A stretch of 64,000 bases of DNA, taken from positions 38,881 to 102,880 of the forward strand of contig JAEOTO010000022.1 of assembly GCA_016839805.1 (NCBI GenBank). The letters are read 5' to 3'. Under the pieces are notes generated by a model. The model had not been told where the DNA came from. It made no database searches and was given only the letters and a program-made list of their open reading frames with translations. The translations under genes and the position numbers were made by a program. Origin of the DNA: Candidatus Hermodarchaeota archaeon (lineage in GTDB: Archaea > Asgardarchaeota > Hermodarchaeia > Hermodarchaeales > Hermodarchaeaceae). Shown here one piece after another: positions 46,903-61,242 of the stretch. Position 1 is the first letter of the stretch. Every line of letters starts with the position of its first letter.

Positions 46903-48390
46903 ATGATTATGTCTCCTCCTCCACAGCCCTCTAACCCACAGAGTAACAAATCCATTACTTCACGATTTGACACTCGACAATACCAAGAACACATTCTTCA
47001 ACGAATCAAAGAAAATCGCAATCAAAATATCTTGGTAGAATTAGACTGTGGCCTGGGGAAACGAGTACTCACCTATAAATTGATTACCGAACTTTTTCCA
47101 GACACCCGGTTTATCATCACTGTCAACTCCTCTTCCTCGCTTCAGGAAACCGCACAATATTTGGAAGAAGAGTATGGCGGGGTAGAAGGCCTAGGGGTGC
47201 TCTCACCTAGAGTTCGAGGACCAATTCGAATAAAACTCCTCCGTGAATCTCGGGTTGTTCTATGTACTGCGCGAGTACTAGCCAATATTCTGCGCAAGGG
47301 TGAGTTAACTCCCGACCGCTTCCAAGCATTACTCATTAATGAAGTAGACACAATTCTACGCCGGGTAGGACATAACCAGGTTCTCATTCAACCTTGGAGC
47401 TTTCTCCTCAATTTCTTTAAGGACCGCTGGATTATCGGGTTAAGTGGTACCCTTCGTGACGACCATGTTGTAATTAATGACGCTCAACTCCAAATCCGCA
47501 ATGAACTCCAAAGTCTGGCGGGCTTCATGACTAACGTCGAATTGATCAGCATGGATGAACTCGTTGATACTGACATGGACCAGTACATCAAACCCACAGT
47601 TCTTGACGTAGCACCAGTTCAAGATCCCGTGATCCGTGCCATAGCACTTGTCCTCGATGACCTCATCCAATCAACTCGTGAAGAAATCTATCAAGTGCTT
47701 AAGGAAGAAACTACTGAGCAAGTTGGTGCGCTACCCGAATCCACGCGATTACTACACTTGATGCTCCAGGAACTTCCCATCTCCGAAGAACTCGCCCAAC
47801 AATATAGTGGGTTGTTGATGGTTCGAAAATATCTCTACGGCATGTCAGCCAAGAGTTTTCGCCGTTACCTCTACCATCCTACCATCAAACCTCAAATTGA
47901 TGTCAAGCGGATGCAACAAGATTGGCCCAAAACCACACCGAAATCCATCGAAGCCCAAAACCTTACCCTAAAAGCTGGAAAAACCGTCATTCTCTCCTCT
48001 TACCTCAACGTTGTCAGCGAAATCGATACACTCCTCAAAGAAAAAGGCATTCAAACATTCAAACTTACAGGTCGAACCATGGACAAACAGGCAGTATTAG
48101 CCAAGTTCAAAGAGGTCAAACCACCGGCTGCTGTTATTCTTTCACCTGTGGGTGAAAGAGACCTCGATTTACCTGATACTGATTTGCTCATTATTTGTGA
48201 TACAGTAAATACGACAAAAACGATTTACCAAAAGATGAAACGGAGTCGTGGAGGGCGAGTAGTGTTCCTCGTTTACAGAGACACCTCTGAAGTTGGGAAA
48301 CTCCGTCGCTTAATCGATAACATCATGCAACGGTATCCCTGGTCAACTCAGCTTGGAAATACGTCTGCACTGAATGTGAAATTTAGTTAA
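46903..48390 (+). CDS. divergent SF2 helicase-like protein (Hef/Mph1/FANCM-like)
   Basis: Q-motif RQYQ, motif I variant LDCGLGKR, motif II variant NEVD, motif III LSGT, motif V GERDLDLP, degenerate motif VI QKMKRSRGG. Confidence 0.65.
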   Translation: MIMSPPPQPSNPQSNKSITSRFDTRQYQEHILQRIKENRNQNILVELDCGLGKRVLTYKLITELFPDTRFIITVNSSSSLQETAQYLEEEYGGVEGLGVLSPRVRGPIRIKLLRESRVVLCTARVLANILRKGELTPDRFQALLINEVDTILRRVGHNQVLIQPWSFLLNFFKDRWIIGLSGTLRDDHVVINDAQLQIRNELQSLAGFMTNVELISMDELVDTDMDQYIKPTVLDVAPVQDPVIRAIALVLDDLIQSTREEIYQVLKEETTEQVGALPESTRLLHLMLQELPISEELAQQYSGLLMVRKYLYGMSAKSFRRYLYHPTIKPQIDVKRMQQDWPKTTPKSIEAQNLTLKAGKTVILSSYLNVVSEIDTLLKEKGIQTFKLTGRTMDKQAVLAKFKEVKPPAAVILSPVGERDLDLPDTDLLIICDTVNTTKTIYQKMKRSRGGRVVFLVYRDTSEVGKLRRLIDNIMQRYPWSTQLGNTSALNVKFS

Positions 48391-49028: not shown

Positions 49029-49664
49029 ATGCCCCTGCCACAGAATATGCAACCAGACAACAATGATTCAAATTCAAGAAATAATGCGACATCAGAGAAA
49101 CTAACAGTGTATCCGGTGTATGTCTACCGGAGGACTTGTAAGCAAATATTCGATTTCTGCCTTCAAGAGGCAAAACGTAAACCCCCGCGTGAAGCGTTAG
49201 GTGTAATTCTAGGCTTCCGCCGGTCTTGGCAAGGTGAGAATTACATACGGGTCACTGATTGGGCGACAGGACGTGTTGAAGCTAGTATAGCGTATGCTCG
49301 ATTTACCCCAGAGGGTATTTTGGAATATCGCCTTGCATTACATGATCGGTACGGAGCGAATCCACATACCCCGCGGGTTGTTGGCCTCTGGCACTCTCAC
49401 CCTTTTGGTGGAGACCCTCACTTTTCATCTACTGATTTACGGACCTTCTTCAACACTCCCTTTTGTGCCGAAGGCAACGTGTTCTTTCTCATCGATCCCT
49501 TAAGTCGTATCTTCAAAGTTTACATGCTGCGTCCACGACTCGAAGAACCTGGTCTGCAACTCGAACGGGTTGATTGGTGTACGTATCAACCCTCGGTTCC
49601 TTTGGGTGATGCACCGCCAATCGAGGATCAGCTGCACGATGAGGAGCCTGTGGAAGATGAGTAA
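49029..49664 (+). CDS. JAB/MPN+ (JAMM) metalloprotease, putative Ubl-processing/deconjugating enzyme
   Basis: REALGVILG (catalytic Glu) and VGLWHSHP-x7-S-x2-D intact JAMM motif; LIDP. Confidence 0.92.
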   Translation: MPLPQNMQPDNNDSNSRNNATSEKLTVYPVYVYRRTCKQIFDFCLQEAKRKPPREALGVILGFRRSWQGENYIRVTDWATGRVEASIAYARFTPEGILEYRLALHDRYGANPHTPRVVGLWHSHPFGGDPHFSSTDLRTFFNTPFCAEGNVFFLIDPLSRIFKVYMLRPRLEEPGLQLERVDWCTYQPSVPLGDAPPIEDQLHDEEPVEDE

Positions 49665-50523
49665 GAAGAAGCCGACATCTATCGAATTACGGTTTTTTGA
49701 ACGTGACCAACATGATCGTACACGTCGTTGGTTAGGAGCGACTAACCTTGATACTATTCGACAATCCACTGTCCTTATGGTCGGGGCTGGTGCTGTGGGA
49801 AATGAAGTCTGTAAAAACCTAGGGTTGTTGGGTGTTGGGAAAATCATCCTTGTTGATCCTGATAAAGTTGCGGCATCTAATCTGAATCGGTGTGTGTTTT
49901 TCCGACCTGGCGATCATGATATTAAATTCAAAGTGGAGGCTGTAGCTGAGCGATTACCCGAACTCGCTACAACCACGGTGGTGGAACCACATGCGGTGCC
50001 AATCCAACACGCACCTGATACGGTGTGGGACGTGGATTTAGTTATCGTAGGTGTAGACAACCATTATGCCCGATACCTGTTGAATGCTAAGAATCTTAGC
50101 TTAGATCCCCCTCGCCTCATCATTAATGGGGCAATGGGGAAAGACCACATATCAGTAGAAGTCTTGGGTCCACCTCACACAGCCTGCATGATCTGTTCCT
50201 GGAGCAAAGACTTTGTAGACCATGTTGTAGCCAACGAAGTCCGCACTCAGTGCGACCCCTTTTTTGTGGACACAGTACCACGATTTCCCATGGTCAGCTT
50301 TGTGACATCCATCGTAGGCGCTGTCATGGCGTGGGAAGCCACTCGAGTTCTGGTTGGGTTGCAACAATGGCAGAATACTGGTCAATGGCAGCAAGGGCTC
50401 GAACCCGCATTTGGTCGGTTCATCCAATACAATCTTAGTAATCACCAGGCGAGTACTGGACCCATTATGCCCAATCCTCGATGCAGTGAAACCTTCTGCC
50501 GTGACAAACGCAAACACCTCTAA
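49657..50523 (+). CDS. ThiF/MoeB-family E1-like Ubl-activating enzyme
   Basis: VGAGAVG, D.D.V..SNLNR, K..A, GVDN..AR, CMIC, downstream Cys (TQCD, putative catalytic), C-terminal CSETFC; ATG at 49657 overlaps the JAB stop. Confidence 0.92.
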   Translation: MSKKKPTSIELRFFERDQHDRTRRWLGATNLDTIRQSTVLMVGAGAVGNEVCKNLGLLGVGKIILVDPDKVAASNLNRCVFFRPGDHDIKFKVEAVAERLPELATTTVVEPHAVPIQHAPDTVWDVDLVIVGVDNHYARYLLNAKNLSLDPPRLIINGAMGKDHISVEVLGPPHTACMICSWSKDFVDHVVANEVRTQCDPFFVDTVPRFPMVSFVTSIVGAVMAWEATRVLVGLQQWQNTGQWQQGLEPAFGRFIQYNLSNHQASTGPIMPNPRCSETFCRDKRKHL

Positions 50524-50538
50524 CAGACTGAGACAGAT

Positions 50539-52143
50539 TTAGATGAGTCCGATCGTTTTTTGCCATACTGTGGATGTAGGTTTCTGATCCGCCCAAAGTC
50601 GAAGATTCAAAATAACCTGTTTTGCAGCCTGAGGCATTGAGACGTTTAAATGCACGTTAACCGGTGCATTCAAACGTGGTGTAAACGGTTCAATTGCCAC
50701 GACCTGGTCCATCAATCCATCCGAAAGGGTGACCGTCATCACCATTTGATCAAGTGGATAAGATCCTGTCCGTGAAGGAGTTAATGAGACAGTCATAGGT
50801 AACCGACTCCCCCGAGGTACGGCATCAGGAACCTTCACATGAAGTTGTGCCGGGGCTGCACTTAGTCGAGGTGCCCCAGAATCAGGGACACTTATTACAC
50901 GGCTAACCTTCCAATTGGTGTTGATTTTCGGCTCCGATTTCCCGCGCTTCTTCTCGTCAATAAATTTCGCCCGATAATACCAACTTACTTTGAATTCTTG
51001 ACGAATCCGCGTATCCATCCAATTTCCAATAATCAATGGAAGATGACGATTGGTGACACCCAATAAACCCATTGATCCATGCCAGGTGGGATCAACAGGA
51101 ATCCATTGACCACGAAGCCAAATCTGACTCCAAGCATGGCGTTCCCACGCCTTGCCGTCAAAAGCCAATCCTGCTTCTAACCGGGCAGGAATTTTATTTG
51201 CACGGCACAACGCCGTAAACAACGCTGCATATTCTGTGCAATCCCCGACTTGATTTTCAATGGCATACGCTGCTCCCCTTTCATATTTTTGCGGGGTATA
51301 CCTCATCTTGTTAGTAACCGTCTGCATCGCAGCTTTAGTGTACTGAATTGGAGTTTTGTGCACCTTAGCTAGATCTCGGGCTAAGTCTTTGATTAAATGG
51401 TGGTGGCTTTCAATGAAGTTCTCTGGTTTCGTATATCGTTCGATATGCTGTGGAACCTCTGAACTAAGTGTGGTTGGGGGAAGATTGTATCGAACGGCAC
51501 GGTTGCGTACCAATGCTGTATAGCCACATTTGAACACTTTTCCTACCGGTAAGACGTCATGCGAAAATCGGATCCAGTTATTTCCGATGAGATCATTTTG
51601 TTCGCGACCTGATGTTGGAGAAAACTTAACATCGAGGATGTCCTGGCGAGGTGGTATCGATGGGGGCATCGCTATGAATGCGTTAATGTTTCCAATTTCA
51701 TATGGCGTACGATTCTTGAGGCTAACCGTATAGTTCACTCGGTGAATGACGATTGGTGGATGTCCAGCTTTAACAAAGAAGCAGCCCAAAACGTGGTGAT
51801 TATCTGGCGGGCCTTTGTTAGGGTCTTTGTCGACAACAAGCTTCTTGATTTTAGTTTCTTGAAATGCAACGAGAACGGTGTAGATGCCAGAAAGAAGGGT
51901 TTTCTTGGTTGGTAAGGAAAATTGTCCAAAATTCGTCTTGTCAAACCGGAAGGGTACTTTACTGATGGGCTTTCCAAAGGGATCGACGATATAGACTATA
52001 CCAGTGTCAATTTTCATGTTAGTGGTGACGGAACTGGTACGTGTCAGCTGAATAGTGATGGATTGACCAGCATTTACGCTTGGCATTCCATCATGACGGG
52101 ATGAAGTGATAATCTGCAAGGACACAGGAAGACCCTTTTTCAT
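50539..52143 (-). CDS. transglutaminase-like (Cys-His-Asp) protein with flanking beta-sandwich-like domains
   Basis: GDCTEYA.LF.ALCRA..IPAR, HAW, W.PVDPTW; ATGA overlap with the upstream gene. Confidence 0.85.
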   Translation of the reverse strand: MKKGLPVSLQIITSSRHDGMPSVNAGQSITIQLTRTSSVTTNMKIDTGIVYIVDPFGKPISKVPFRFDKTNFGQFSLPTKKTLLSGIYTVLVAFQETKIKKLVVDKDPNKGPPDNHHVLGCFFVKAGHPPIVIHRVNYTVSLKNRTPYEIGNINAFIAMPPSIPPRQDILDVKFSPTSGREQNDLIGNNWIRFSHDVLPVGKVFKCGYTALVRNRAVRYNLPPTTLSSEVPQHIERYTKPENFIESHHHLIKDLARDLAKVHKTPIQYTKAAMQTVTNKMRYTPQKYERGAAYAIENQVGDCTEYAALFTALCRANKIPARLEAGLAFDGKAWERHAWSQIWLRGQWIPVDPTWHGSMGLLGVTNRHLPLIIGNWMDTRIRQEFKVSWYYRAKFIDEKKRGKSEPKINTNWKVSRVISVPDSGAPRLSAAPAQLHVKVPDAVPRGSRLPMTVSLTPSRTGSYPLDQMVMTVTLSDGLMDQVVAIEPFTPRLNAPVNVHLNVSMPQAAKQVILNLRLWADQKPTSTVWQKTIGLI

Positions 52144-52532
52144 AATGCTTTTCCTTCATCATCTGGATCTGAATCGTTGGGTTCCCTCTCCTTATCTTGG
52201 AGAATAACTACTTTTCCTCCTTTCTTCTTTGGGGGTCCCATTCGCTGAACATTCCCAAGAATCACAATACTAGACCCTTCTTCACCCATCATTTCATCAT
52301 TTGTTGGTCGGGGACCAAGGAACTGGGTGAAATGAGGAGGGTGTGGTTCAACTCCTCTGACAATAGTTCCGGGACAGATACCATCTCCAGATTCTAAGAA
52401 AATCACTCGGCAGTTAGGGCACATATAGCTTCCACAGGTTGTGCAAATCCACCAAGTCCTTCGTGCTTCATCAAGTGGAACTTGGGCATCACAGGCAACA
52501 CATTTCATTTGTGAGGCGCCGTACACACTCAC
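52140..52532 (-). CDS. RING-like zinc-finger protein (putative E3) with disordered SIM-like tail
   Basis: CVAC-x15-CTTC-x4-CPNC-x11-CP...H; tail contains SIVIL and KVVILQD plus acidic residues. Confidence 0.65.
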   Translation of the reverse strand: MSVYGASQMKCVACDAQVPLDEARRTWWICTTCGSYMCPNCRVIFLESGDGICPGTIVRGVEPHPPHFTQFLGPRPTNDEMMGEEGSSIVILGNVQRMGPPKKKGGKVVILQDKEREPNDSDPDDEGKAL

Positions 52533-52756
52533 TCTTCAGGCTCCTCCTTATCTGGATGTTTGCGGGCTCGGTGAACTTTCACATCAAAATGAGGAGAAAA
52601 GTTTGGGGGACGTTCTTCTTCAAATGGAATATCCCGTTCTTCTAAGATGACGATACGATTCAATGAGGATGGGTGCTCTGATGGATCTTGATTATCCTTA
52701 TCAGATTCATGCTTCTCTTTTTCTACCTTAGGTGGGGGTTCCGTCATCTTGAGCAC
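52529..52756 (-). CDS. small acidic/disordered protein with RIVILEE motif
   Basis: 75 aa ORF abutting the E2 stop and overlapping the next start (GTGA); fills the operon gap. Confidence 0.55.
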   Translation of the reverse strand: MLKMTEPPPKVEKEKHESDKDNQDPSEHPSSLNRIVILEERDIPFEEERPPNFSPHFDVKVHRARKHPDKEEPEE

Positions 52757-53521
52757 CTAACTTTCTTCATCTTTATCAGAATTCTCTAGGATTCGGACTT
52801 TTGTTTGAAATCGCCTTTCCGGATCTTGGAGGATACGGGGAGGTCGTCGACTCGGGCTAGCTTCTGTGGATTGCGGTTCTAAAATTGTCACACGACCCTC
52901 TCTAGGTGGTGAAGGTGCTCCTATTTGGTGCCTTTCCTCCCAAAGACGCTCCAAAGTATTCACGATATTTTCTGAATCCTTCTCATACCAAGCCATTGCC
53001 ATACTGTTAAGCCCATGATCGGATTGGAATTGTGATGGTGGTTCAACACGATCAGGCTTTAGTAAAATAAAGAAAGGCAAGTCTTCTAGAATTCGATCCA
53101 ATTCTCCTCTGACTGAATAACATGCTTGTCCCTTTCCACTGGCAGCTAACCGGGGATGATAAAGCTGAGTTTCCGCTGCGGGACGAATCGAGCCAATATT
53201 TTGGGGATATTCTCGGGGAAGATCAAAGATAAACCGATGTTCATACTGAATGGCTCGCTGGTCGGTCAGCGTTCCTGGCTCATGAATATACCCGGGAAGA
53301 TTTCGCATAGTAAACTGAACGCGTTTATAGGCTCCATCTCGGTATCGGGCACTAATCGCGACCGTGAAATCAGAATTACTCCAACTAGTATCCTCACGCC
53401 GTGGTGGATCGGGAGGCCAACCCCGGCGTCCATACAAATTATTCATGGTATCAAAGAACGTCTGGATTTGTGTTTCGACTCGGGCGTTAAAGAGTTCCGG
53501 TGAAAACACTGGTCGTGTCAT
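52757..53521 (-). CDS. UBC/E2-like ubiquitin-conjugating enzyme
   Basis: F.FDLPREYP, TQLYHPRL...GQAC (HPN-like motif plus catalytic Cys), LN..A..WY; disordered C-terminal tail. Confidence 0.8.
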   Translation of the reverse strand: MTRPVFSPELFNARVETQIQTFFDTMNNLYGRRGWPPDPPRREDTSWSNSDFTVAISARYRDGAYKRVQFTMRNLPGYIHEPGTLTDQRAIQYEHRFIFDLPREYPQNIGSIRPAAETQLYHPRLAASGKGQACYSVRGELDRILEDLPFFILLKPDRVEPPSQFQSDHGLNSMAMAWYEKDSENIVNTLERLWEERHQIGAPSPPREGRVTILEPQSTEASPSRRPPRILQDPERRFQTKVRILENSDKDEES

Positions 53522-53580
53522 GATCTATCTCCACATCTACCTTGATTCCTCGGAAAGGATATTTAGTCAATTCTAAGATA

Positions 53581-53904
53581 TTAGAATCCCACTTCAGGCA
53601 CTACATCGAGGAGGAAGAACTCATCATCTGAAATTTTGGGATCTAGTTCGCCAAAGGTGGCACCAGGGCTTAGTCGAGTGGGTTCCGGGGCTTTGCGGAT
53701 TAAGACAAACTCAGGACGTTGGTCACCAATTTTTGCCTTCGCCCAATCGTCAATACTTACACCTTCATCTCGAGCTTGGGTGACGAGGGTGCGGATGACT
53801 TCTTCAACTCGAGTGTCTTCATCAATCCCAATGCGAAATTCCTTTTGGCGAGGTTCAACGTCAACAATGATTGAGCGCCAAAAACCTTCTTCACTGCTCA
53901 TCAT
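53581..53904 (-). CDS. ubiquitin-like (beta-grasp) protein ending ...PEVG-F
   Basis: Beta-beta-alpha pattern (IIVDV..FRIGI.EDTRVEEVIRTL); LSPGATFGEL...ISDDEFFLL echoes ubiquitin [20 protein letters not shown]; penultimate Gly; first gene of the E2 operon. Confidence 0.7.
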   Translation of the reverse strand: MMSSEEGFWRSIIVDVEPRQKEFRIGIDEDTRVEEVIRTLVTQARDEGVSIDDWAKAKIGDQRPEFVLIRKAPEPTRLSPGATFGELDPKISDDEFFLLDVVPEVGF

Positions 53905-54144
53905 AAGTTACCTCAAAGGGAAGACGTGTATCACCCACTTTAACTTTTCTTGATAATTAGCCCGCTTCTCGTCCCTGTTTATTCAAGAAAGAAATAAGGT
54001 CGGTTCCAAAACAAGTTTAAATGGCGCCTTGCTCTCCGGTTAAGTGAAAGTTTAAGAGTCACGGGCTAGTTTGAGCTAGTGAACTTAGTCATCGCATAAG
54101 ATGTAATTAACTACACAATAACCCGCGGGAGATTAGTCGGCGAA
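53905..54144. promoter_or_regulatory. divergent promoter region shared by the Ubl operon and the SMC operon
   Basis: 240-bp head-to-head gap with TATA-like elements (TTTAAC near 53939, TTTAAAT near 54016, TTTAAG near 54051). Confidence 0.45.
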
Positions 54145-57045
54145 ATGACACCTAGGCAAGAGCCATCACCCTCAATATCACCCTTAGTATTTCGTAAGCT
54201 ACGCCTAGTGAACTTTGTCATTCACCGTGATACAACCATTCAGTTGGATAGCGCTCCCATCACATTAATCACAGGTTCCAATGGCAGTGGAAAAACTCTC
54301 ATCCTCGATGCATTACTCTTTGCCATTGGGGTTGATTCTCGCCGCGCGCAACGGCAACGAAACGCGGCCTTCATTGGACAATTTGATAAACATGCTGAAG
54401 TCAATTTAGAACTCAACAACTTCCAACTCAACGGTCGGCGTGTCCTACGGAGCCCAGACCCAAGCTTATCAAAGCTCCTTAATAATGACGTAGTGACGAT
54501 TCGCCTTCGAATTTACCCAGGTAATCGGATCGCCTATTGGCTCAATGAGCAACGTTCCATCAACGGTCACCCGATAACCCGAAAGGATATCCGGAAACTC
54601 TTTCGAGCAGCTGGTCTTTTTGGTGACTCTCCTTTAGCCATTACAGAAGCAGAAACTTTAGACCATTTTGCCTCGCAATCACCTCGCCGCAAATTCGAGA
54701 CATTACTCAATGAAACCGGGTTACGAAACTGGATGGAGAAACTTGAAGAAGCCCGACTCCTAGTCCTTCAAGCCCAGGCAAACGTCAAACCCCTCCAATA
54801 TCGTATTCGACATGAAGAACAACGCCTTCAACTCTTAAAAACCGCCTACGCAGCCTTTCAACAAAAACAACAACTCCAAGAACGCCTCCAAGAACTCGAC
54901 CTTGAAGCAGCTTGGTCAGAAGTAGCTTATCGAGAAGGATTGGTTGAACAACTTCAATCGCAGATGAATGAAATTCAAGCTCAATTTACTATGGAACGTG
55001 AAAAATTAACAAAGCTTGATAATCGAAGAGCTGAACTCGTTTCAAAGTATGAAACTGTACAACAGCAACGACAAAAGCTTCAAACCACAATGGAGACAGT
55101 TCGCGATCAGCTTATGCAAGCGAAAGGACACCGGCTAGGACTCGAAAACGAACTAACCAGTGTCAATACGCAAATGAAACGTTACACAACAACCAAACGT
55201 CGAAAACCTGCGAAAACCAAACACGAGACTTTACAACGCGAATTTGCTGCTTTCACCAAGGAACGTGATGACCTTGATGATCAATTAGATAACTTGCGTC
55301 AAGATATCGCTTTCACAGAGGAGGAATTATTTACTACACCACAACGGTTTCCACGTTTCGAAGAAAGTATCCTGCGTGCTTGTCAACGATATCGTGAAGA
55401 ATTAGACAAGATCGCACTATCGGCTTCAGTAATTGGTCCTCTGTTCTCTCTTATACAGATGAAACGTGATTATGAGGAGTATGAAACTGCCGTCAAGCTC
55501 GCAATGGGTAGGTACACTTACGCATTCATCGCCTTGGATCGTAATGCTTTCAGTGAAGCTAAGAGCTTATTCGATCGCCTTTGGCCTTCTGAAAAACCAG
55601 ATTTAGTGGTAGCTCGGACCAACCCAACAACCGCGGTAACTCACGATCGTCCTGAAGTATCTCCACCTGTTTTTGGTTGGGCTGCAGATCTAATTGAAGG
55701 GGATGTTTATGCAGTTAGTTTTCTCAGTCGTGTTGTTAATACAGCAGTCGCTGAAGAATCTGCAGATCCCAACGAGTTAGTTGATGCCACCCAACAATTG
55801 AAAGGAAATATCATCACGAGTGATGGGACGAGTTTTTACCTGCGAATTGGGGCTTTCGCCCGACCACCTCGCCCTGTAACCGTCCGGTTATCTACTGCTC
55901 TCCGGGAATTAGGACTGACTCAGGAAAGTAGTGTAATTAGACAACGGCTTCGAAAATCACGAGAAGACGAAGCCCGTTTAATGCAAGATCGCATGCGCTT
56001 GAATTCTGAAATTAGCCAACTACGCTTACAGCTTCAGGATTTACGGCAAGCAGGTTCCGCTGCCTTATCTGATGAAGAACGCACCTCGATTCTAGTGGAT
56101 TTAGAACGGCGTTCAGCAGACCTGCAACAGCAGATACTAGAATTAGATGTACGCTGTGATACCCTTGCCCAAGATAGCCAGGTTTGCAATTCTGATATGC
56201 TTCCCTTAATTTCTCGAATGCAAAAGTTGGACAGACAATTAGAAAATTTAGATCATCGCCGGTCGCGGCGGACAGCTGAGGTTGAACGAATTACTGACGA
56301 ACTTCGTCAACGTGAGGAAGAATTTACACACCTCAATACACAAGTGAAAGAGTTTCGAAAAAATGCGGAGAAGCTGGGTAATCGTCCTGCAAGCATACGA
56401 ACCCCCTCGGCTGTAAGAGACGAGCAATTACAGCTTCAGGCAATGATTGAAACAATTACAGCGACGGCAGAGGACCTTCATGCCTTCGAAACACAAGAAG
56501 AAATTGTCCAACAACTTCATGATTACCTAAAAGAGCGTAAACTACATTTAGAAAATTTGATGACGGATGTCGACAGGCGCTTAATCAAATGGCGAGAAGA
56601 ACTCGAAACGACAATTGAGAAATTAAACCAGCGAATGAATCAACTCCTCAGCCACTTCCTCAAACAGGTAAAACTCCAAGTTCGGTATCCTGATGAACCT
56701 AGCCGGGCAGAACTGAATCTCCAACTAGCGATTAACCGGAAAGAACAATGGCGAACCTATCAAGAGATGTCTGGCGGCGAACGGGTCCTAGCCACCCAAA
56801 CCTTTATCCTCGCACTTCACACTTTGGCGAAAAGCCCTCTGCACGTTATTGATGAATTTACCCAACGATTAGACGAAGCTAGTCGGGCAGCAGTTCTCAG
56901 TGTGGTTCAACGTACTCTCGATTTAACTCACATTGAGACGCTCATTCATCCCCAGTTCCTACTTATGGCTCCCTCTACCGTTGGTCTTCAGATTCCAGAG
57001 ACCATGCATCATATCATTTTGCTCAAAGGACAGGTGAAACCATGA
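54145..57045 (+). CDS. SMC-family ATPase, Smc5/6-like
   Basis: Walker A GSNGSGKT; two long coiled coils; central hinge VIGPLFSLI...AVKLAMG...AF; signature MSGGER; Walker B HVIDEF; D-loop TQRLD; QFLLMAP. Confidence 0.88.
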   Translation: MTPRQEPSPSISPLVFRKLRLVNFVIHRDTTIQLDSAPITLITGSNGSGKTLILDALLFAIGVDSRRAQRQRNAAFIGQFDKHAEVNLELNNFQLNGRRVLRSPDPSLSKLLNNDVVTIRLRIYPGNRIAYWLNEQRSINGHPITRKDIRKLFRAAGLFGDSPLAITEAETLDHFASQSPRRKFETLLNETGLRNWMEKLEEARLLVLQAQANVKPLQYRIRHEEQRLQLLKTAYAAFQQKQQLQERLQELDLEAAWSEVAYREGLVEQLQSQMNEIQAQFTMEREKLTKLDNRRAELVSKYETVQQQRQKLQTTMETVRDQLMQAKGHRLGLENELTSVNTQMKRYTTTKRRKPAKTKHETLQREFAAFTKERDDLDDQLDNLRQDIAFTEEELFTTPQRFPRFEESILRACQRYREELDKIALSASVIGPLFSLIQMKRDYEEYETAVKLAMGRYTYAFIALDRNAFSEAKSLFDRLWPSEKPDLVVARTNPTTAVTHDRPEVSPPVFGWAADLIEGDVYAVSFLSRVVNTAVAEESADPNELVDATQQLKGNIITSDGTSFYLRIGAFARPPRPVTVRLSTALRELGLTQESSVIRQRLRKSREDEARLMQDRMRLNSEISQLRLQLQDLRQAGSAALSDEERTSILVDLERRSADLQQQILELDVRCDTLAQDSQVCNSDMLPLISRMQKLDRQLENLDHRRSRRTAEVERITDELRQREEEFTHLNTQVKEFRKNAEKLGNRPASIRTPSAVRDEQLQLQAMIETITATAEDLHAFETQEEIVQQLHDYLKERKLHLENLMTDVDRRLIKWREELETTIEKLNQRMNQLLSHFLKQVKLQVRYPDEPSRAELNLQLAINRKEQWRTYQEMSGGERVLATQTFILALHTLAKSPLHVIDEFTQRLDEASRAAVLSVVQRTLDLTHIETLIHPQFLLMAPSTVGLQIPETMHHIILLKGQVKP

Positions 57046-57839
57046 TGGATACTAATGATACCTCAGTACATCGCCGTGTTTTTTCTGATCGTAAGATATG
57101 GCGAAAAACCTCGAAACGAAATTACAAGAAATATCGTGTCCCCTCTTATGGTACAAAGAGTGTCATCATCACTCTTTGGGATTTAACAAAGAAATACGAA
57201 ATTGCCTTGAAGCATAAAGAGGTATTTCCGATCAAAGAGTCTGAGATTGACCGTGAAGAAGTCACTGATGCATTTCATCTCCTGGAAACTCCTTGGGAAC
57301 GAAATCTTGATGGTCGATTTTATCACACTCTTTCCACTATGGTCCATCGCCGTGATTCTCAACTGGCTACCCCTGAAATCACATCCGAGCAATGGATTCA
57401 TCAGTTCGCAAATGTCGTCAAACGTCGGGCAACCCCATTACTTTTTCTTATCAGCCCTGAGCGATCCGTGCCACCTTTTGATCTACCACCAGTTGATTCT
57501 CCTGTCACACTAGCTGAACCACCTTCCCGTGATGACCGCATCGCATTGCAGAAGCATAAAGTGCCATTCGAAGAAGTTTCATTCACCTCATTAGAAACCC
57601 GGCGGAGTAGATTAGTCAAACGTTTACAGGGAAAACGATTCAAGTACTCGGAGTTAGCTGACCATCTCTCCAATTGGGAACTAGACCTTCTTAGCCAGAT
57701 GATCCGGGATAATTCCTTACCAGCGATTTTTGATAAAACCTCGGTAACGTTTCGTGAAGTGGCGTTCTCCAAATCAAATTCTGCATTCTCAGCTGTGGCA
57801 ATTGCAGCAAAGAAGTACGAGGAGGTCACGTCGCAATGA
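57042..57839 (+). CDS. putative kleisin (ScpA/Nse4-like) subunit
   Basis: Directly after SMC with ATGA overlap; helical N-part, Pro-rich linker, C-terminal winged-helix-like VSFTSLETRRSRLVKRL...FKYSEL; assignment is mostly positional. Confidence 0.45.
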   Translation: MMDTNDTSVHRRVFSDRKIWRKTSKRNYKKYRVPSYGTKSVIITLWDLTKKYEIALKHKEVFPIKESEIDREEVTDAFHLLETPWERNLDGRFYHTLSTMVHRRDSQLATPEITSEQWIHQFANVVKRRATPLLFLISPERSVPPFDLPPVDSPVTLAEPPSRDDRIALQKHKVPFEEVSFTSLETRRSRLVKRLQGKRFKYSELADHLSNWELDLLSQMIRDNSLPAIFDKTSVTFREVAFSKSNSAFSAVAIAAKKYEEVTSQ

Positions 57840-58477
57840 CAACAGATCCAGCAGAACCTAAAGATACAACTCTTGTGATAGAAGAAGCAGAAGATGAAGC
57901 ACTGGAACAACGCCATCTCCTAGGTCAACTCTTTGCCGCACTCACAGCTCGATATCGTGATGATGATGGCCATCTGAATGTCGGTGTAAAACGCCAAGAT
58001 TTACTTGAAGCACTCCACGTAAATAAGACCGGGTTAAACCGCCTTCTCGACCTGCTCCGCCAACAAATTACATCACTCGGGCTGGAACTTGTTGAATATC
58101 GCCTTGGTCGAGACACCCTCTATTGCATTCGAACACTCTATGGTGTTCCCGGGGAACTCACAGATCCTGAATACGCAGTCTTAGGTGTCATTATTGCCAC
58201 CATTGAGCAGGCAAGCAAAAGGCGGCGACCTCGTCGAATTGCCACAAAAGATCTCGAAACTATGCTAGTAGCCCGGGGGCGAATTTCCCGCTACCAACTG
58301 GATCGAATTCTACGCCGGCTCATCGAATTAGGTTATGTCACCCGAACTGCTCGATGCATCGCCTATGGACCACGCTTAGAACTAGAATTTGATGCGGAAC
58401 GCCGTGAAGCCATCGCGAGTGCTGCCACAATATACCTTGCTGGAGCCATCGCCCAATCAGAAGGTGACACCGAATGA
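57836..58477 (+). CDS. KITE-family tandem winged-helix protein (Nse1/Nse3-MAGE/ScpB-like)
   Basis: L...I.SLGLELVE, LT..E.A.L..I, L.RL.ELGYV and YGPRL.LE resemble Nse1/MAGE WH-A/WH-B motifs; ATGA overlap. Confidence 0.65.
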   Translation: MTTDPAEPKDTTLVIEEAEDEALEQRHLLGQLFAALTARYRDDDGHLNVGVKRQDLLEALHVNKTGLNRLLDLLRQQITSLGLELVEYRLGRDTLYCIRTLYGVPGELTDPEYAVLGVIIATIEQASKRRRPRRIATKDLETMLVARGRISRYQLDRILRRLIELGYVTRTARCIAYGPRLELEFDAERREAIASAATIYLAGAIAQSEGDTE

Positions 58478-58929
58478 AACTCGATTTATCAACGGTGGGC
58501 ATCTCTTGTGTCGCCTGTGGAACACGGACTACATTAGAACATGCTATCCAGGAGGGCTGGCACCAATGCCTTCGTTGCCAGTTTTTCATCGACCCCCAAT
58601 GCCTCCACATCGTTCAAACTACAATGGGAGGCGTGTGTCCAGCTTTCAGTCAAGGAGTTCCACGCCACACGCTTCAACCCGCGGACATCCCCTCCGAACA
58701 AATCTTAATCTTTGTGAAAGATCAATATCAAAAAGGTCGTGTCGGGGCCCTCATAGATACTCTCTTTTACACACAACGGCTCCCTCTCTCTCCACCTCAA
58801 CATGACTCAAAATATAAAGGGCCTTCCGAAGAGCCGCTGACCCGTGAAGAGATTTGGCAGCGCTATGGCTTAGTATTGGTACGAAGGGCTCACGGAAAAT
58901 GGGTCACTTGGGAAAAAATTCTATTTTAA
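58474..58929 (+). CDS. RING-like zinc-finger protein, paralog of 52140..52532
   Basis: CVAC-x16-CLRC-x4-DPQC-x11-CP...GV..H; ATGA overlap with the KITE gene. Confidence 0.6.
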   Translation: MKLDLSTVGISCVACGTRTTLEHAIQEGWHQCLRCQFFIDPQCLHIVQTTMGGVCPAFSQGVPRHTLQPADIPSEQILIFVKDQYQKGRVGALIDTLFYTQRLPLSPPQHDSKYKGPSEEPLTREEIWQRYGLVLVRRAHGKWVTWEKILF

Positions 58930-59910
58930 ACCTAATTTAACGAGAATGGTATCCACAAGTTTTCGAGCTGAATTTTTCACATCCTCCAGCTCTGTTTTCG
59001 GCTCATCCTTTTCATCTTCATCTAACAAAGGTAATCCAGCTAAACTTCGGATGATACTAGATATTGCATGTTGAGCTACAAATATCTCCGAACCCCCTGA
59101 CAATAAAACTACTAATTTCCCGGAGCAGACAGCATCAGCTGTTTGCATCAGAATCTTAGTCATTGCTGGAAATGCACGAAGCGAGAGATTGAACCCACCA
59201 TAATCCAATGCATGCGCATCATGCCCCATGTTCCAAAGGATCATTTCTGCTTCACTTTGACGGGCTAAAGGCGGAACCAGGCGACGGACCGCTTCTACAA
59301 AGGATCCATCACTACTATTACTAGGAAATGGCACATCCACATGCCGCTTCGACTCTATCTCATATCGTTCCCGGAAACTCGCCTCAAAGTTCAAATGAAA
59401 TACTCCCTCATCATCCCCTAATATGTCCCGTGTTCCATCCCCGGGATGAGGATCAGTATCAACGATAAAAAATTGTTTCACATCATATTTCTGTTGTAGA
59501 TTTCGTATTAGCAGGGCTGAGTTGTTATAATAACAAAAACCCCAAAAGGAATCTCGACTAGCGTGATGCCCCGCACATCCTGTAAAAGCAAAGGAATTTC
59601 TGGCTTCCCCTAACCACACACCCTCACCTGCACGAACTGCAGCACCAGCGGAGACCAGTGAAGCGGCATCATACCCAGAATTCTTCACCTGCTGAATGTG
59701 GTTTTTTGTATGCACCTGAACAAGCAACTCTTCAGAAACTTCAAAAGCCTGCTCCACTTTCACATGAGGTGAATCAAGGGTCCCTGTTTCTCGTAAATAC
59801 TCAAAGGCCGGTTGGACACGACCAGCTAGAACTGGATAACCTTTCGCAGCCATGAGTGGATGATACAAAATAAGGGTTGGCTTCTTAGTTGATGCTGTTT
59901 TATTGGTCAT
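58921..59910 (-). CDS. histone deacetylase (Zn-dependent HDAC/AcuC) family protein
   Basis: AGHHA, GFCYYNN, DTDPHPGDGT, GHDAH, SGGS in place of EGGY. Confidence 0.9.
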   Translation of the reverse strand: MTNKTASTKKPTLILYHPLMAAKGYPVLAGRVQPAFEYLRETGTLDSPHVKVEQAFEVSEELLVQVHTKNHIQQVKNSGYDAASLVSAGAAVRAGEGVWLGEARNSFAFTGCAGHHASRDSFWGFCYYNNSALLIRNLQQKYDVKQFFIVDTDPHPGDGTRDILGDDEGVFHLNFEASFRERYEIESKRHVDVPFPSNSSDGSFVEAVRRLVPPLARQSEAEMILWNMGHDAHALDYGGFNLSLRAFPAMTKILMQTADAVCSGKLVVLLSGGSEIFVAQHAISSIIRSLAGLPLLDEDEKDEPKTELEDVKNSARKLVDTILVKLGLK

Positions 59911-60042: not shown

Positions 60043-61242
60043 GTGGAAATTCGAAATTTAACAGAGAAAGAACGTACCGAAGCCAGAATGTTACACCGAT
60101 ATGCCTTCGGTGAATGGTCGGATAAAGAAGTGAAAGACGATGAAATGACCTATCTTGACCCCACACAAACAATCGGGCTATTCGATGATACTGCGACTCT
60201 CATTTCTACTGTTGCTGTGATTGATTTCAAACAGTGTATTCGTGGTGTCAGTAAACGAATGGGTGGAATTGCCGAAGTAAGTACGTATCCGGAGGGACGG
60301 TATCAGGGAAATATACAAAAACTGATGCAGTATGCCTTCAACCAAATGCAAGAAAACGGCTTCTCGGTGAGTATGCTTGCCCCATTCAAGGATTCCTATT
60401 ACGAAAAATTTGACTACACTAAGGCGAACGCACCATATCTTGTAGGCGCTCCACAACTTGCGATTCGTCATTACCTCTCAATAGATCCAGGTTCTGATTG
60501 GGTAATCGAAAGACATCGAGCCCAAGATGTACAGAAACAATACACGGAATATTTCAATCGTGTCCCATTTACGAAATATCATGGCTTTGTTACCTTTACA
60601 AAGTTGAAACCAAAAATCTGGAAAGACCGAAGTAAGGATTCTCTGGTCGTGTTCGTTAAACGGAATGGAAACACCGAAGGGATGAGCCGTTATCGGATAC
60701 TACGCAAAGATCCCCGTGATGAGGCAACCCAAGAACTTCATATCGTTGATTTCTACTCGAATAGCCTAACTGCTCAATTAATATTATTCAACTTCTTTGC
60801 GAAACATACTGACCAGATTAACAAAGTTTGGATTCATGCTCCCTTTGATACAATGGTCGAACATTGGTTCAAAGATGACATCATTGAAATCAAACGATAT
60901 ATGCCCTGGATGGTTCGAGTAATTGACGTTGAACAAGCGCTTACGGGTCTACCTGCAAAAGGTGAAGATGAATTTCGCATTCGAGTTACTGACAAGATGT
61001 GTGAATGGAATAATCAAATCTTTGCGCTCCGCTCAAAAAACGAGTCCCTCCAAGCCCATCAGGCCTCAGGAAATCCCGCAGCTACTATGACTATCAAAGG
61101 ACTTTCAGCATTAGTATACGGAACCCAATCCATTGAGGAACTCGAACATCTTAACTTGTTACAAATCAAAGAAGAATGGGTCAAACACACCCTTCAACGA
61201 TGGTTCACTCAGTTACCCATCTACAGTACCGTCTACTTCTAA
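60043..61242 (+). CDS. Eis-family GNAT acetyltransferase with C-terminal SCP2-like domain
   Basis: MGGIAEVST.PE.R.QG, L.PF...YYEKFDY, MVRVIDV..AL, D.MC.WN, LSAL.YG. Confidence 0.88.
   Translation: MEIRNLTEKERTEARMLHRYAFGEWSDKEVKDDEMTYLDPTQTIGLFDDTATLISTVAVIDFKQCIRGVSKRMGGIAEVSTYPEGRYQGNIQKLMQYAFNQMQENGFSVSMLAPFKDSYYEKFDYTKANAPYLVGAPQLAIRHYLSIDPGSDWVIERHRAQDVQKQYTEYFNRVPFTKYHGFVTFTKLKPKIWKDRSKDSLVVFVKRNGNTEGMSRYRILRKDPRDEATQELHIVDFYSNSLTAQLILFNFFAKHTDQINKVWIHAPFDTMVEHWFKDDIIEIKRYMPWMVRVIDVEQALTGLPAKGEDEFRIRVTDKMCEWNNQIFALRSKNESLQAHQASGNPAATMTIKGLSALVYGTQSIEELEHLNLLQIKEEWVKHTLQRWFTQLPIYSTVYF

Follow-up and report, generated by a model that had tools for sequence, protein, structure and literature searches.

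A second SMC operon joined to a divergent ubiquitin-like conjugation cascade in Asgard archaea

The locus described here lies in a 64,000-nt stretch of Candidatus Hermodarchaeota archaeon (GCA_016839805.1, contig JAEOTO010000022.1, positions 38,881-102,880, forward strand), which is called the window below. An operon for a second, divergent structural maintenance of chromosomes (SMC) ATPase, a putative kleisin, a KITE-like winged-helix protein and a RING-like zinc protein (RING1) stands divergently beside genes for a candidate ubiquitin-like protein (Ubl), a divergent conjugating enzyme (E2), a small acidic protein, a second RING-like protein (RING2) and a transglutaminase-fold enzyme; genes for a JAB protease and an activating enzyme (E1) complete the set. 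Gene order in related genomes gives good support to the view that the SMC operon and the Ubl operon act as one functional unit. We consider it probable that they encode one system, a second, non-condensin SMC-kleisin-KITE complex with an integral RING-like subunit, which has a dedicated Ubl cascade in Hermodarchaeia, Ca. Asgardarchaeum and some Heimdall-labelled lineages.

Three Gene Orders Join the SMC Operon to the Ubl Cascade

The eleven open reading frames (ORFs) claimed in the initial annotation were all present at the coordinates and with the overlaps given there (Table 1). On the minus strand, the genes from E2 to the transglutaminase-fold enzyme are connected by two 4-nt overlaps and one abutment, and on the plus strand three 4-nt overlaps run through SMC, kleisin, KITE and RING1. 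This 11-gene arrangement was repeated exactly in 10 further full-length loci of Hermodarchaeia. In the Hermodarchaeia family (f1) the E2 was found in 18/18 genomes, and its gene adjoined SMC wherever the contigs permitted a check. On its own, the synteny in Hermodarchaeia could be inherited synteny.

Two other gene orders were found outside this group. In Ca. Asgardarchaeum abyssi, SMC, kleisin, KITE, RING1, JAB and E1 follow one another in one operon with overlapping genes, and Ubl, E2, the small protein and the transglutaminase-fold enzyme are encoded in this order on another contig, where the Ubl ends exactly at the glycine. Five separate loci in Heimdall-labelled metagenome-assembled genomes (MAGs) carry a co-directional array of nine genes, SMC-kleisin-KITE-RING1-JAB-E1-Ubl-E2-small protein, with RING2 and the transglutaminase gene 6-43 kb further on. 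The proteins of the locus are only about 30-40% identical across these lineages. That three rearranged orders keep cascade genes on the SMC operon is hard to explain without a shared function, and the proposed linkage of the two operons thus survived the possibility that they would prove unlinked in relatives. The description of the Ubl genes as a complete module is accurate for Hermodarchaeia. The genes for RING2 and the transglutaminase-fold enzyme can change place, and the Ca. Asgardarchaeum Ubl operon lacks RING2.

The distribution of the locus was surveyed by profile searches of 400 sampled Asgard genomes. In this sample, 67/400 genomes had a match to the RING1 profile, among them 18/18, 28/31 and 11/12 genomes of three families. 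The KITE profile matched in 70/400 genomes of the same families, and its gene was always directly upstream of RING1. Matches to the E2 profile at strong E-values came from 32/400 genomes, all of them in families carrying RING1 and KITE. By this survey, the SMC-kleisin-KITE-RING1 operon is the wider unit, and the Ubl cascade appears as an add-on in about half of the carriers. In the loci of one large family (f4) only the four-gene operon is present, and a gene for a transglutaminase homologue lies at a distance of 6-7 kb.

The Same Genome Encodes Canonical SMC and Ubiquitin Sets

The genome from which the window was taken holds canonical counterparts of both halves of the locus. An operon on contig C22 encodes a canonical SMC (1191 aa) followed by ScpA and ScpB, and this SMC is distinct from that of the window; a Rad50-Mre11-HerA set lies on contig C43. 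A ubiquitin gene (PF00240, 2.9e-11) is located between two UQ_con E2 genes (9.5e-35 and 7.9e-17) on contig C47:272-2571 (G000). A search of the whole genome returned the window-type SMC as a single copy. These results indicated that the window locus specifies a second SMC complex with a dedicated, divergent Ubl system; that the Ubl is a dedicated one, as first proposed, agrees with the separate canonical ubiquitin/E2 cluster.

Table 1. Features of the SMC-Ubl locus in the window, and transglutaminase-fold homologues near SMC operons in loci (L numbers) where E2 was not found
Feature	Position	Strand	Basis
JAB/JAMM metalloprotease, 211 aa	49029..49664	+	Pfam Prok-JAB, E 4.9e-10
E1-like adenylating enzyme (ThiF family), ~288 aa	49657..50523	+	Pfam ThiF, E 8.3e-34
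Transglutaminase-fold (papain-like) Cys enzyme, 534 aa	50539..52143	-	Pfam Transglut_core, E 5.8e-22
RING2, zinc protein, 130 aa	52140..52532	-	Eight invariant ligands; match to RING1 profile
Small acidic protein, 75 aa	52529..52756	-	Position after E2 gene; conserved C-terminal motif
Divergent E2 (UBC fold), 254 aa	52757..53521	-	Foldseek of AlphaFold model; invariant Cys134
Ubl precursor candidate, 107 aa, ending ...PEVG-F	53581..53904	-	Invariant C-terminal VG
Divergent intergenic region, 240 bp	53905..54144		Alignment of Hermodarchaeia loci
Second, divergent SMC ATPase, 966 aa	54145..57045	+	Pfam SMC_N, E 1.2e-24
Putative kleisin, 265 aa	57042..57839	+	Position alone
KITE-like winged-helix subunit, 213 aa	57836..58477	+	MarR_2, E 2.5e-6
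RING1, RING-like zinc protein, 151 aa	58474..58929	+	AlphaFold model and VIA-align
Transglutaminase-fold homologue	L033:839-2446		
Transglutaminase-fold homologue	L034:16394-17998		
Transglutaminase-fold homologue	L005:1046-2533		

SMC, Putative Kleisin and KITE

The SMC of the window has the split ABC head, the coiled coil and the hinge of an SMC protein. Pfam SMC_N spans residues 17-924, and a weak SMC_hinge match was obtained (E 0.049; 0.004 in the G115 orthologue). The Walker A motif GSNGSGKT, the SGGE signature and the Walker B motif IDEF can be read in the translation. The protein matched NCBIfam SMC_prok_B at E 1.4e-40 with 139 bits, far under the cut-off of that model, and its best PADLOC match was LmuB, the SMC-like ATPase of Lamassu, at E 1.5e-30 with 105 bits over the C-terminal half, with JetC at 4e-12. 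In the complete Heimdall-labelled genome G049, a separate 214-aa ORF (L033:16636-17280) that corresponds to the N-terminal head half only is found 2 kb upstream of the full-length SMC that belongs to the RING-bearing operon.

The 265-aa ORF behind SMC is conserved in every carrier lineage. It is called a putative kleisin because it holds the position of ScpA, as in the SMC-ScpA-ScpB operon of the same genome. In the following protein, the KITE, one winged helix was detected through MarR_2, and a Pfam scan of its orthologues returned winged-helix families only. The lower-ranked Atlas leads for the KITE were DUF4194/MksE and MAGE (Nse3) clusters with scores of 0.79-0.81. A profile search of PDB sequences with the KITE alignment gave nothing meaningful.

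RING1 and RING2 Are Paralogous RING-like Proteins

The RING1 gene directly followed the KITE gene in every locus examined. RING1 begins with a RING-like zinc domain that covers about residues 1-100; a disordered linker joins it to a C-terminal beta domain of three strands, which is conserved. Its AlphaFold model reached a predicted local distance difference test (pLDDT) score of 83.8. When this model was compared with structural representatives by VIA-align, the best 50 matches were mostly RING, U-box, ZZ and SP-RING domains with Z 4.2-5.6, including APC11, RNF4, TRAF3/6, Ring1b, Prp19, Nse2 (Z 4.8-4.9) and the Nse1 RING (Z 4.3). The family pattern is C-x2-[CHD]-x16-C-x2-C-x4-[CD]-x2-C-x11-C-x9-H, which we take to be unlike the zinc-ligand patterns of Nse1 or SP-RING domains. 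The RING1 family is small, with only 54 clusters among 1.84 billion representatives, and the named members that we encountered were all annotated as "hypothetical protein".

RING2 starts with a RING-like domain, continues into a disordered basic/acidic tail and lacks the C-terminal beta domain of RING1. Its ligands C11, C14, C30, C33, C38, C41, C53 and H64 were all invariant in 4 orthologues, and weak Pfam matches to IBR and zf-RING_16 were seen. The RING1 profile matched RING2 proteins at E 1e-9 to 1e-12 (2.6e-11 for RING2 of the window), and the two families have the ligand scheme C-x2-C-x15/16-C-x2-C-x4-C-x2-C-x11-C-x9/10-H in common. The idea that the RING-like genes of the two operons are paralogous is borne out by this profile match and by the common scheme.

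A complex prediction for KITE and the putative kleisin with RING1 as partner gave a score of 0.01, which counts neither for nor against binding. Candidates for a KITE-RING fusion were also considered and rejected, as the longer proteins that carry a RING1-like domain, of 315-325 aa, are encoded beside tetratricopeptide repeat (TPR) genes and not SMC genes. The upstream ORFs of two distant RING1 relatives on contigs of about 1.3 kb had no detectable KITE similarity. A separate small family (P0073, P0078, P0081 and P0084; L031, L032) carries a RING1-like domain at the C-terminus of a coiled-coil and winged-helix-like protein; its first CxxC is changed to CxGH, and its genes are located beside those of large TPR proteins, not beside SMC genes.

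E2, Ubl and the Small Acidic Protein

The E2 of the window had no Pfam match, and two orthologues gave only sub-threshold matches to UQ_con (0.003-0.004). With a four-sequence profile searched against PDB sequences, 36 of the 39 weak matches were E2 enzymes, aligned at the active-site loop ...P.EYP...HP...C. An AlphaFold model built with 29 sequences reached pLDDT 79.6 and had 96 Foldseek matches in the PDB at E<=1e-3, and the best 50 of these were almost exclusively E2 enzymes with probability 1.00. Residues H122, P123, R124 and Cys134 were invariant in the 29 sequences. The protein therefore shows the UBC fold with a catalytic cysteine, followed by a disordered C-terminal tail. The E2 call, which could have failed in profile searches, held, and the Foldseek result of the model backs it.

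The C-terminal VG of the Ubl was invariant in 20 orthologues. Nothing follows it in 10 cases, and in the remaining orthologues 1-3 unconserved residues (F, D, L, Q, K, I, FSS, QKQ or IK) are present. An invariant VG with a variable tail of 0-3 residues is the pattern of a precursor that is trimmed to a terminal glycine, as in ubiquitin-type precursors. The fold itself gave less. Orthologues showed weak Pfam matches to YukD and RA of the ubiquitin clan (0.015-0.07), among Atlas feature clusters for which a Pfam family was shown, the nearest were all ubiquitin-like folds with a score of 0.90, and a profile search of PDB sequences with the Ubl alignment gave nothing meaningful. The signals suggest a beta-grasp fold weakly, and the C-terminus is more telling.

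The gene for the small acidic protein comes directly after that for E2 in all three layouts, and the two genes either overlap or abut. The protein has a conserved C-terminal motif, [IV]xI[IL]xE...PPN[FY]xP...H, in which I37, E40, P50, P51, N52 and H62 were invariant among 6 orthologues, and it could be an adaptor or a substrate. Short [IV]x[IV][IL] motifs with acidic flanks are found repeatedly in this part of the window (52140-53521), both in the small protein and in the tails of E2 and RING2. Those at I37 of the small protein and at I91 and L92 of RING2 do not vary between lineages, and the motifs resemble strand-addition motifs of the SUMO-interacting (SIM) type.

JAB, E1 and the Transglutaminase-Fold Enzyme

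The JAB protein carries the JAMM/MPN+ motif, and the residues E55, H122-x-H124, S133 and D136 were invariant in 5 orthologues from 3 lineages. It is likely the enzyme that trims the C-terminus of the Ubl and also deconjugates it. In both gene layouts outside Hermodarchaeia, the JAB gene is directly behind RING1. The E1 contains a ThiF adenylation domain. Its ORF is open from TTG 49570. The likely start is the ATG at 49657, chosen by alignment to the N-terminus of the G022 orthologue; from there, the E1 gene overlaps the end of JAB by 8 nt.

The transglutaminase-fold enzyme carries flanking beta-rich domains around its core. In five Hermodarchaeia species (L008:2838-3713, L009, L011, L012 and L017) the gene product is only about 290 aa long and corresponds to residues 131-423 of the window protein. 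These short forms are without the N-terminal Ig-like and the C-terminal beta-rich domains and retain the catalytic cysteine motif; GDCTE[YF] was kept in 11/11 orthologues, the 290-aa core-only forms included. The gene is paired with RING2 in the Hermodarchaeia and the Heimdall-labelled loci. In addition, homologues with 27-32% identity were found 2-7 kb from SMC-kleisin-KITE-RING1 in three loci where E2 and Ubl were not found (Table 1).

Intergenic Region and Neighboring Genes

The gap between the divergent operons was aligned over 9 Hermodarchaeia loci (window, L008, L009, L011, L013, L015 and L017-L019). It contains two similar, outward-facing boxes that resemble a TATA box with a B recognition element (TATA/BRE). 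The box on the Ubl side reads CACTTTAA(C/G)TTT, and that on the SMC side reads (G/A)AA(G/C)TT(T/A)AAG at 54046-54056. Between the two boxes an invariant TGGCGC(C) is conserved over two genera of Hermodarchaeia, and TGGCGCC may serve as a shared operator.

Directly upstream of the locus, a ResIII/Helicase_C protein of 495 aa is encoded at 46903-48390. On the other side, a gene for an HDAC-family deacetylase at 58921-59910 (-) converges on RING1 and overlaps its end, and is followed by a GNAT-SCP2 acetyltransferase gene at 60043-61242 (+). A GNAT gene is also located directly upstream of SMC in another family (G027; L005:3697-4224). These GNAT and HDAC neighbors may point to an acetylation link of the SMC complex. 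In the Heimdall-labelled arrays, the gene after the small protein encodes an aromatic amino-acid lyase of 574-584 aa with an inserted rubredoxin domain, which is conserved in three loci of different MAGs (L022:10442-12160, L026:11094-12848 and L028:11216-12940). Among public sequencing runs, no RNA dataset carrying the locus was listed, and the DNA datasets with the locus were sediment metagenomes.

Proposed Mechanism and Alternative Explanations

In the mechanism that we propose, the JAB protease would trim the 0-3 residues past the invariant C-terminal glycine of the Ubl. The ThiF-type E1 would then adenylate this glycine and hand the Ubl to Cys134 of the UBC-fold E2. RING1, perhaps anchored to SMC, kleisin or KITE through its C-terminal beta domain, would bring the E2~Ubl to the DNA-loaded complex, where SMC subunits or nearby chromatin proteins would be tagged in the manner of Nse1 and Nse2 in the eukaryotic Smc5/6 complex. 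Accessory roles would fall to RING2, the small acidic protein and the transglutaminase-fold enzyme; RING2 might be a free E3 or an adaptor, and the cysteine enzyme might provide a second conjugating, deconjugating or cross-linking activity. We put forward the E3 activity, the physical assembly of RING and SMC, a dependence on DNA, the substrates and an ancestral relation to the Smc5/6 ligases as hypotheses, and the co-regulation and DNA sensing proposed in the initial annotation have the same standing.

Several observations weigh against this coupled, Smc5/6-like reading. About half of the RING1-bearing genomes have no detected E2 of the locus type, and in family f4, where RING1 is present in 28/31 genomes, such an E2 was detected in none. 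The presence of RING1 in many genomes without that E2 argues that RING1 has a role independent of the cascade and need not be an E3. The second zinc ligand of RING1 varies (C/H/D) across the family, and the Hermodarchaeia proteins have Asp for Cys40. The Z values of 4.2-5.6 fall in the range where the tool warns that a common arrangement may be behind a match, and so the domain is named RING-like and is not taken as a proven RING; Foldseek of the RING1 model gave no match at E<=0.001. The E2 has an invariant HPR in place of an HPN motif with Asn. The 265-aa ORF had no match to Pfam, to PDB sequence profiles or to Atlas features, and among PDB sequences the SMC matched prokaryotic SMC heads best, with Smc6 at 3.3e-9.

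Part of this evidence would also fit a reversed coupling, in which the Ubl cascade acts on the SMC complex as its target or regulated client, RING1 serves as a zinc module with a structural or a DNA/protein-binding role, and RING2 is the ligase or no E3 is needed. The maintenance of RING1 with the SMC operon where E2 is not found, the contrast between the eight constant ligands of RING2 and the variable ones of RING1, and the modest fold scores of RING1 all speak for it. However, Ca. Asgardarchaeum encodes no RING2 in its Ubl operon, yet JAB and E1 are directly behind RING1 there, and the Heimdall-labelled arrays put RING1 beside JAB-E1-Ubl-E2, with RING2 6-43 kb off. We regard the reversed coupling as unlikely, though it is the strongest competitor. 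A chance neighborhood of two unrelated operons, with the zinc paralogue as a coincidence of local duplication, is hardly credible. Simple inheritance could account for the synteny within Hermodarchaeia alone, and the Ubl-E2 operon and the SMC operon of Ca. Asgardarchaeum are on different contigs, but all three rearranged orders keep cascade genes joined to the SMC operon, and in the 400 genomes E2 was strictly nested within the RING1-bearing families.

It is also improbable, in our view, that the locus is an anti-mobile-element defense system made of an SMC-type DNA sensor of the Wadjet or Lamassu kind, a Ubl module of the Bil or CBASS kind and a transglutaminase-fold effector. LmuB is the best PADLOC match of the SMC (E 1.5e-30), and E1 and JAB match CBASS/Bil-type models weakly. 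Bacterial E1-E2-Ubl-JAB operons are defense systems (PMC10557695), and SMC-based immunity is established (PMC10586767). Against this, the SMC scores 139 bits with chromosomal SMC models and 105 bits with LmuB; PADLOC gave no match for E2, Ubl, RING, KITE and kleisin; and no JetD- or LmuA-like nuclease partner was seen in the loci examined. Moreover, the locus occurs in nearly every genome of the carrier families with conserved flanks and is not patchy, and its neighbors are housekeeping genes (HDAC-family deacetylase, GNAT acetyltransferase, histidyl-tRNA synthetase and ATP synthase). Such constant vertical inheritance within families, in the company of housekeeping genes, favors a role in chromosome maintenance or repair over a mobile defense island.

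Comparison With Known Systems

The bacterial systems Bil/Bub and CBASS Cap2-Cap3 (PMC10557695) resemble the locus in that E1, E2, JAB and, in Bil, a Ubl are encoded together. In PADLOC, the best match of the E1 domain was at 9.3e-15 (E1-E2 fusion models), with BilD at 3.5e-7, and JAB matched at 6e-5; these values reflect generic domain similarity and do not place the locus in Bil or CBASS. The E2 and the Ubl of the window matched none of the PADLOC models. The locus also differs in having E1 and E2 as separate, unfused genes, in its RING-like proteins and SMC partner, and in its vertical inheritance within families. With Wadjet (JetABCD) and Lamassu (LmuABC) (PMC10586767) it has in common an SMC-family ATPase and the partial LmuB match, and with Wadjet it would share partners of the kleisin/KITE type. 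It lies outside both systems: no nuclease effector of the JetD or LmuA type was seen at the loci examined, where the Ubl cascade takes the place of the effector, the locus is conserved within whole families, and kleisin, KITE and RING are without a PADLOC match.

The eukaryote-like archaeal operons encode ubiquitin, E1, E2, a small RING protein and Rpn11 (PMC3082918, PMC5654768, PMC6043591). The operons of Caldiarchaeum subterraneum and Asgard archaea described in these studies fill the roles that are proposed for the genes here, with a JAMM protease that trims the precursor, an E1, an E2 and a small RING protein, and are likewise operonic. Their parts match Pfam ubiquitin and UQ_con clearly, whereas the parts found here are far more divergent: the Ubl has no ubiquitin-family Pfam match and ends in a single glycine, the E2 has HPR, and the genes are linked with those of an SMC operon and a transglutaminase-fold enzyme. 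For Asgard biology, the locus thus adds a second, highly divergent Ubl pathway beside the known eukaryote-like one. The initial annotation knew of no locus that combines these parts, and our literature search, with its incomplete coverage, likewise found no description of SMC-Ubl coupling.

Among the eukaryotic SMC complexes, Smc5/6 is the one with ubiquitin and SUMO ligase subunits. The holocomplex contains Smc5-Smc6, the kleisin Nse4, the KITEs Nse1 and Nse3, and the SUMO ligase Nse2. We know of no account of how Smc5/6 gained its ligase subunits. The present locus would share with it an SMC-kleisin-KITE core that carries zinc-finger subunits of the ligase type and works with an E2~Ubl. The RING1 gene adjoins the KITE gene as the Nse1 RING adjoins the Nse1 winged helices, and the RING1 model aligns to the Nse2 SP-RING and the Nse1 RING, among many other RINGs. 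There are clear differences as well. Each operon has one SMC gene instead of the two paralogues of a heterodimer, so the SMC presumably forms a homodimer; every locus encodes KITE and RING1 in two separate genes that overlap, unlike the fused Nse1; no Nse2-, Nse5- or Nse6-like parts were seen at the locus; and Ubl, E1, E2 and JAB are private to it, whereas Smc5/6 uses the general SUMO and ubiquitin machinery of the cell.

Two SMC-kleisin-kite operons, one of them SMC5/6-related, have been described in TACK and Asgard archaea (bioRxiv 10.1101/2024.01.07.573240). Supplementary Table 3 of that preprint gives Hermodarchaeum sp016839805 2 SMC5/6-related SMCs, 0 Nse4-related kleisins and 1 Nse1/3-related kite. 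The archaeal SMC5/6-related operons (bioRxiv 10.1101/2024.01.07.573240; Yoshinaga and Inagaki, PMC8665677) are likewise a second SMC operon beside a condensin-like one and have the order SMC-kleisin-kite. In the preprint they comprise three genes, with no RING-like neighbor or Ubl cascade mentioned, whereas the kite gene of the loci studied here is invariably followed by one for a RING-like protein, and the window locus also has a Ubl cascade joined to it. The Nse1 RING is described as absent from archaeal kites and is called a eukaryotic innovation (bioRxiv 10.1101/2024.01.07.573240). We raise tentatively, as a doubtful but consequential idea, that ligase coupling of the Smc5/6 type predates eukaryotes and that Nse1 arose by fusion of neighboring KITE and RING genes. 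On this idea, an SMC5/6-related complex of Asgard archaea would already have used a RING subunit next to its KITE to recruit a dedicated E2~Ubl to complexes bound to DNA, and eukaryotes would not have invented the Nse1 RING. The locus may represent a prokaryotic precursor of Smc5/6 with its ligases. With 9-11 small genes, it offers a clonable prokaryotic system for testing SMC-directed Ubl conjugation, and it allows one to ask which features of Smc5/6 came from archaea.

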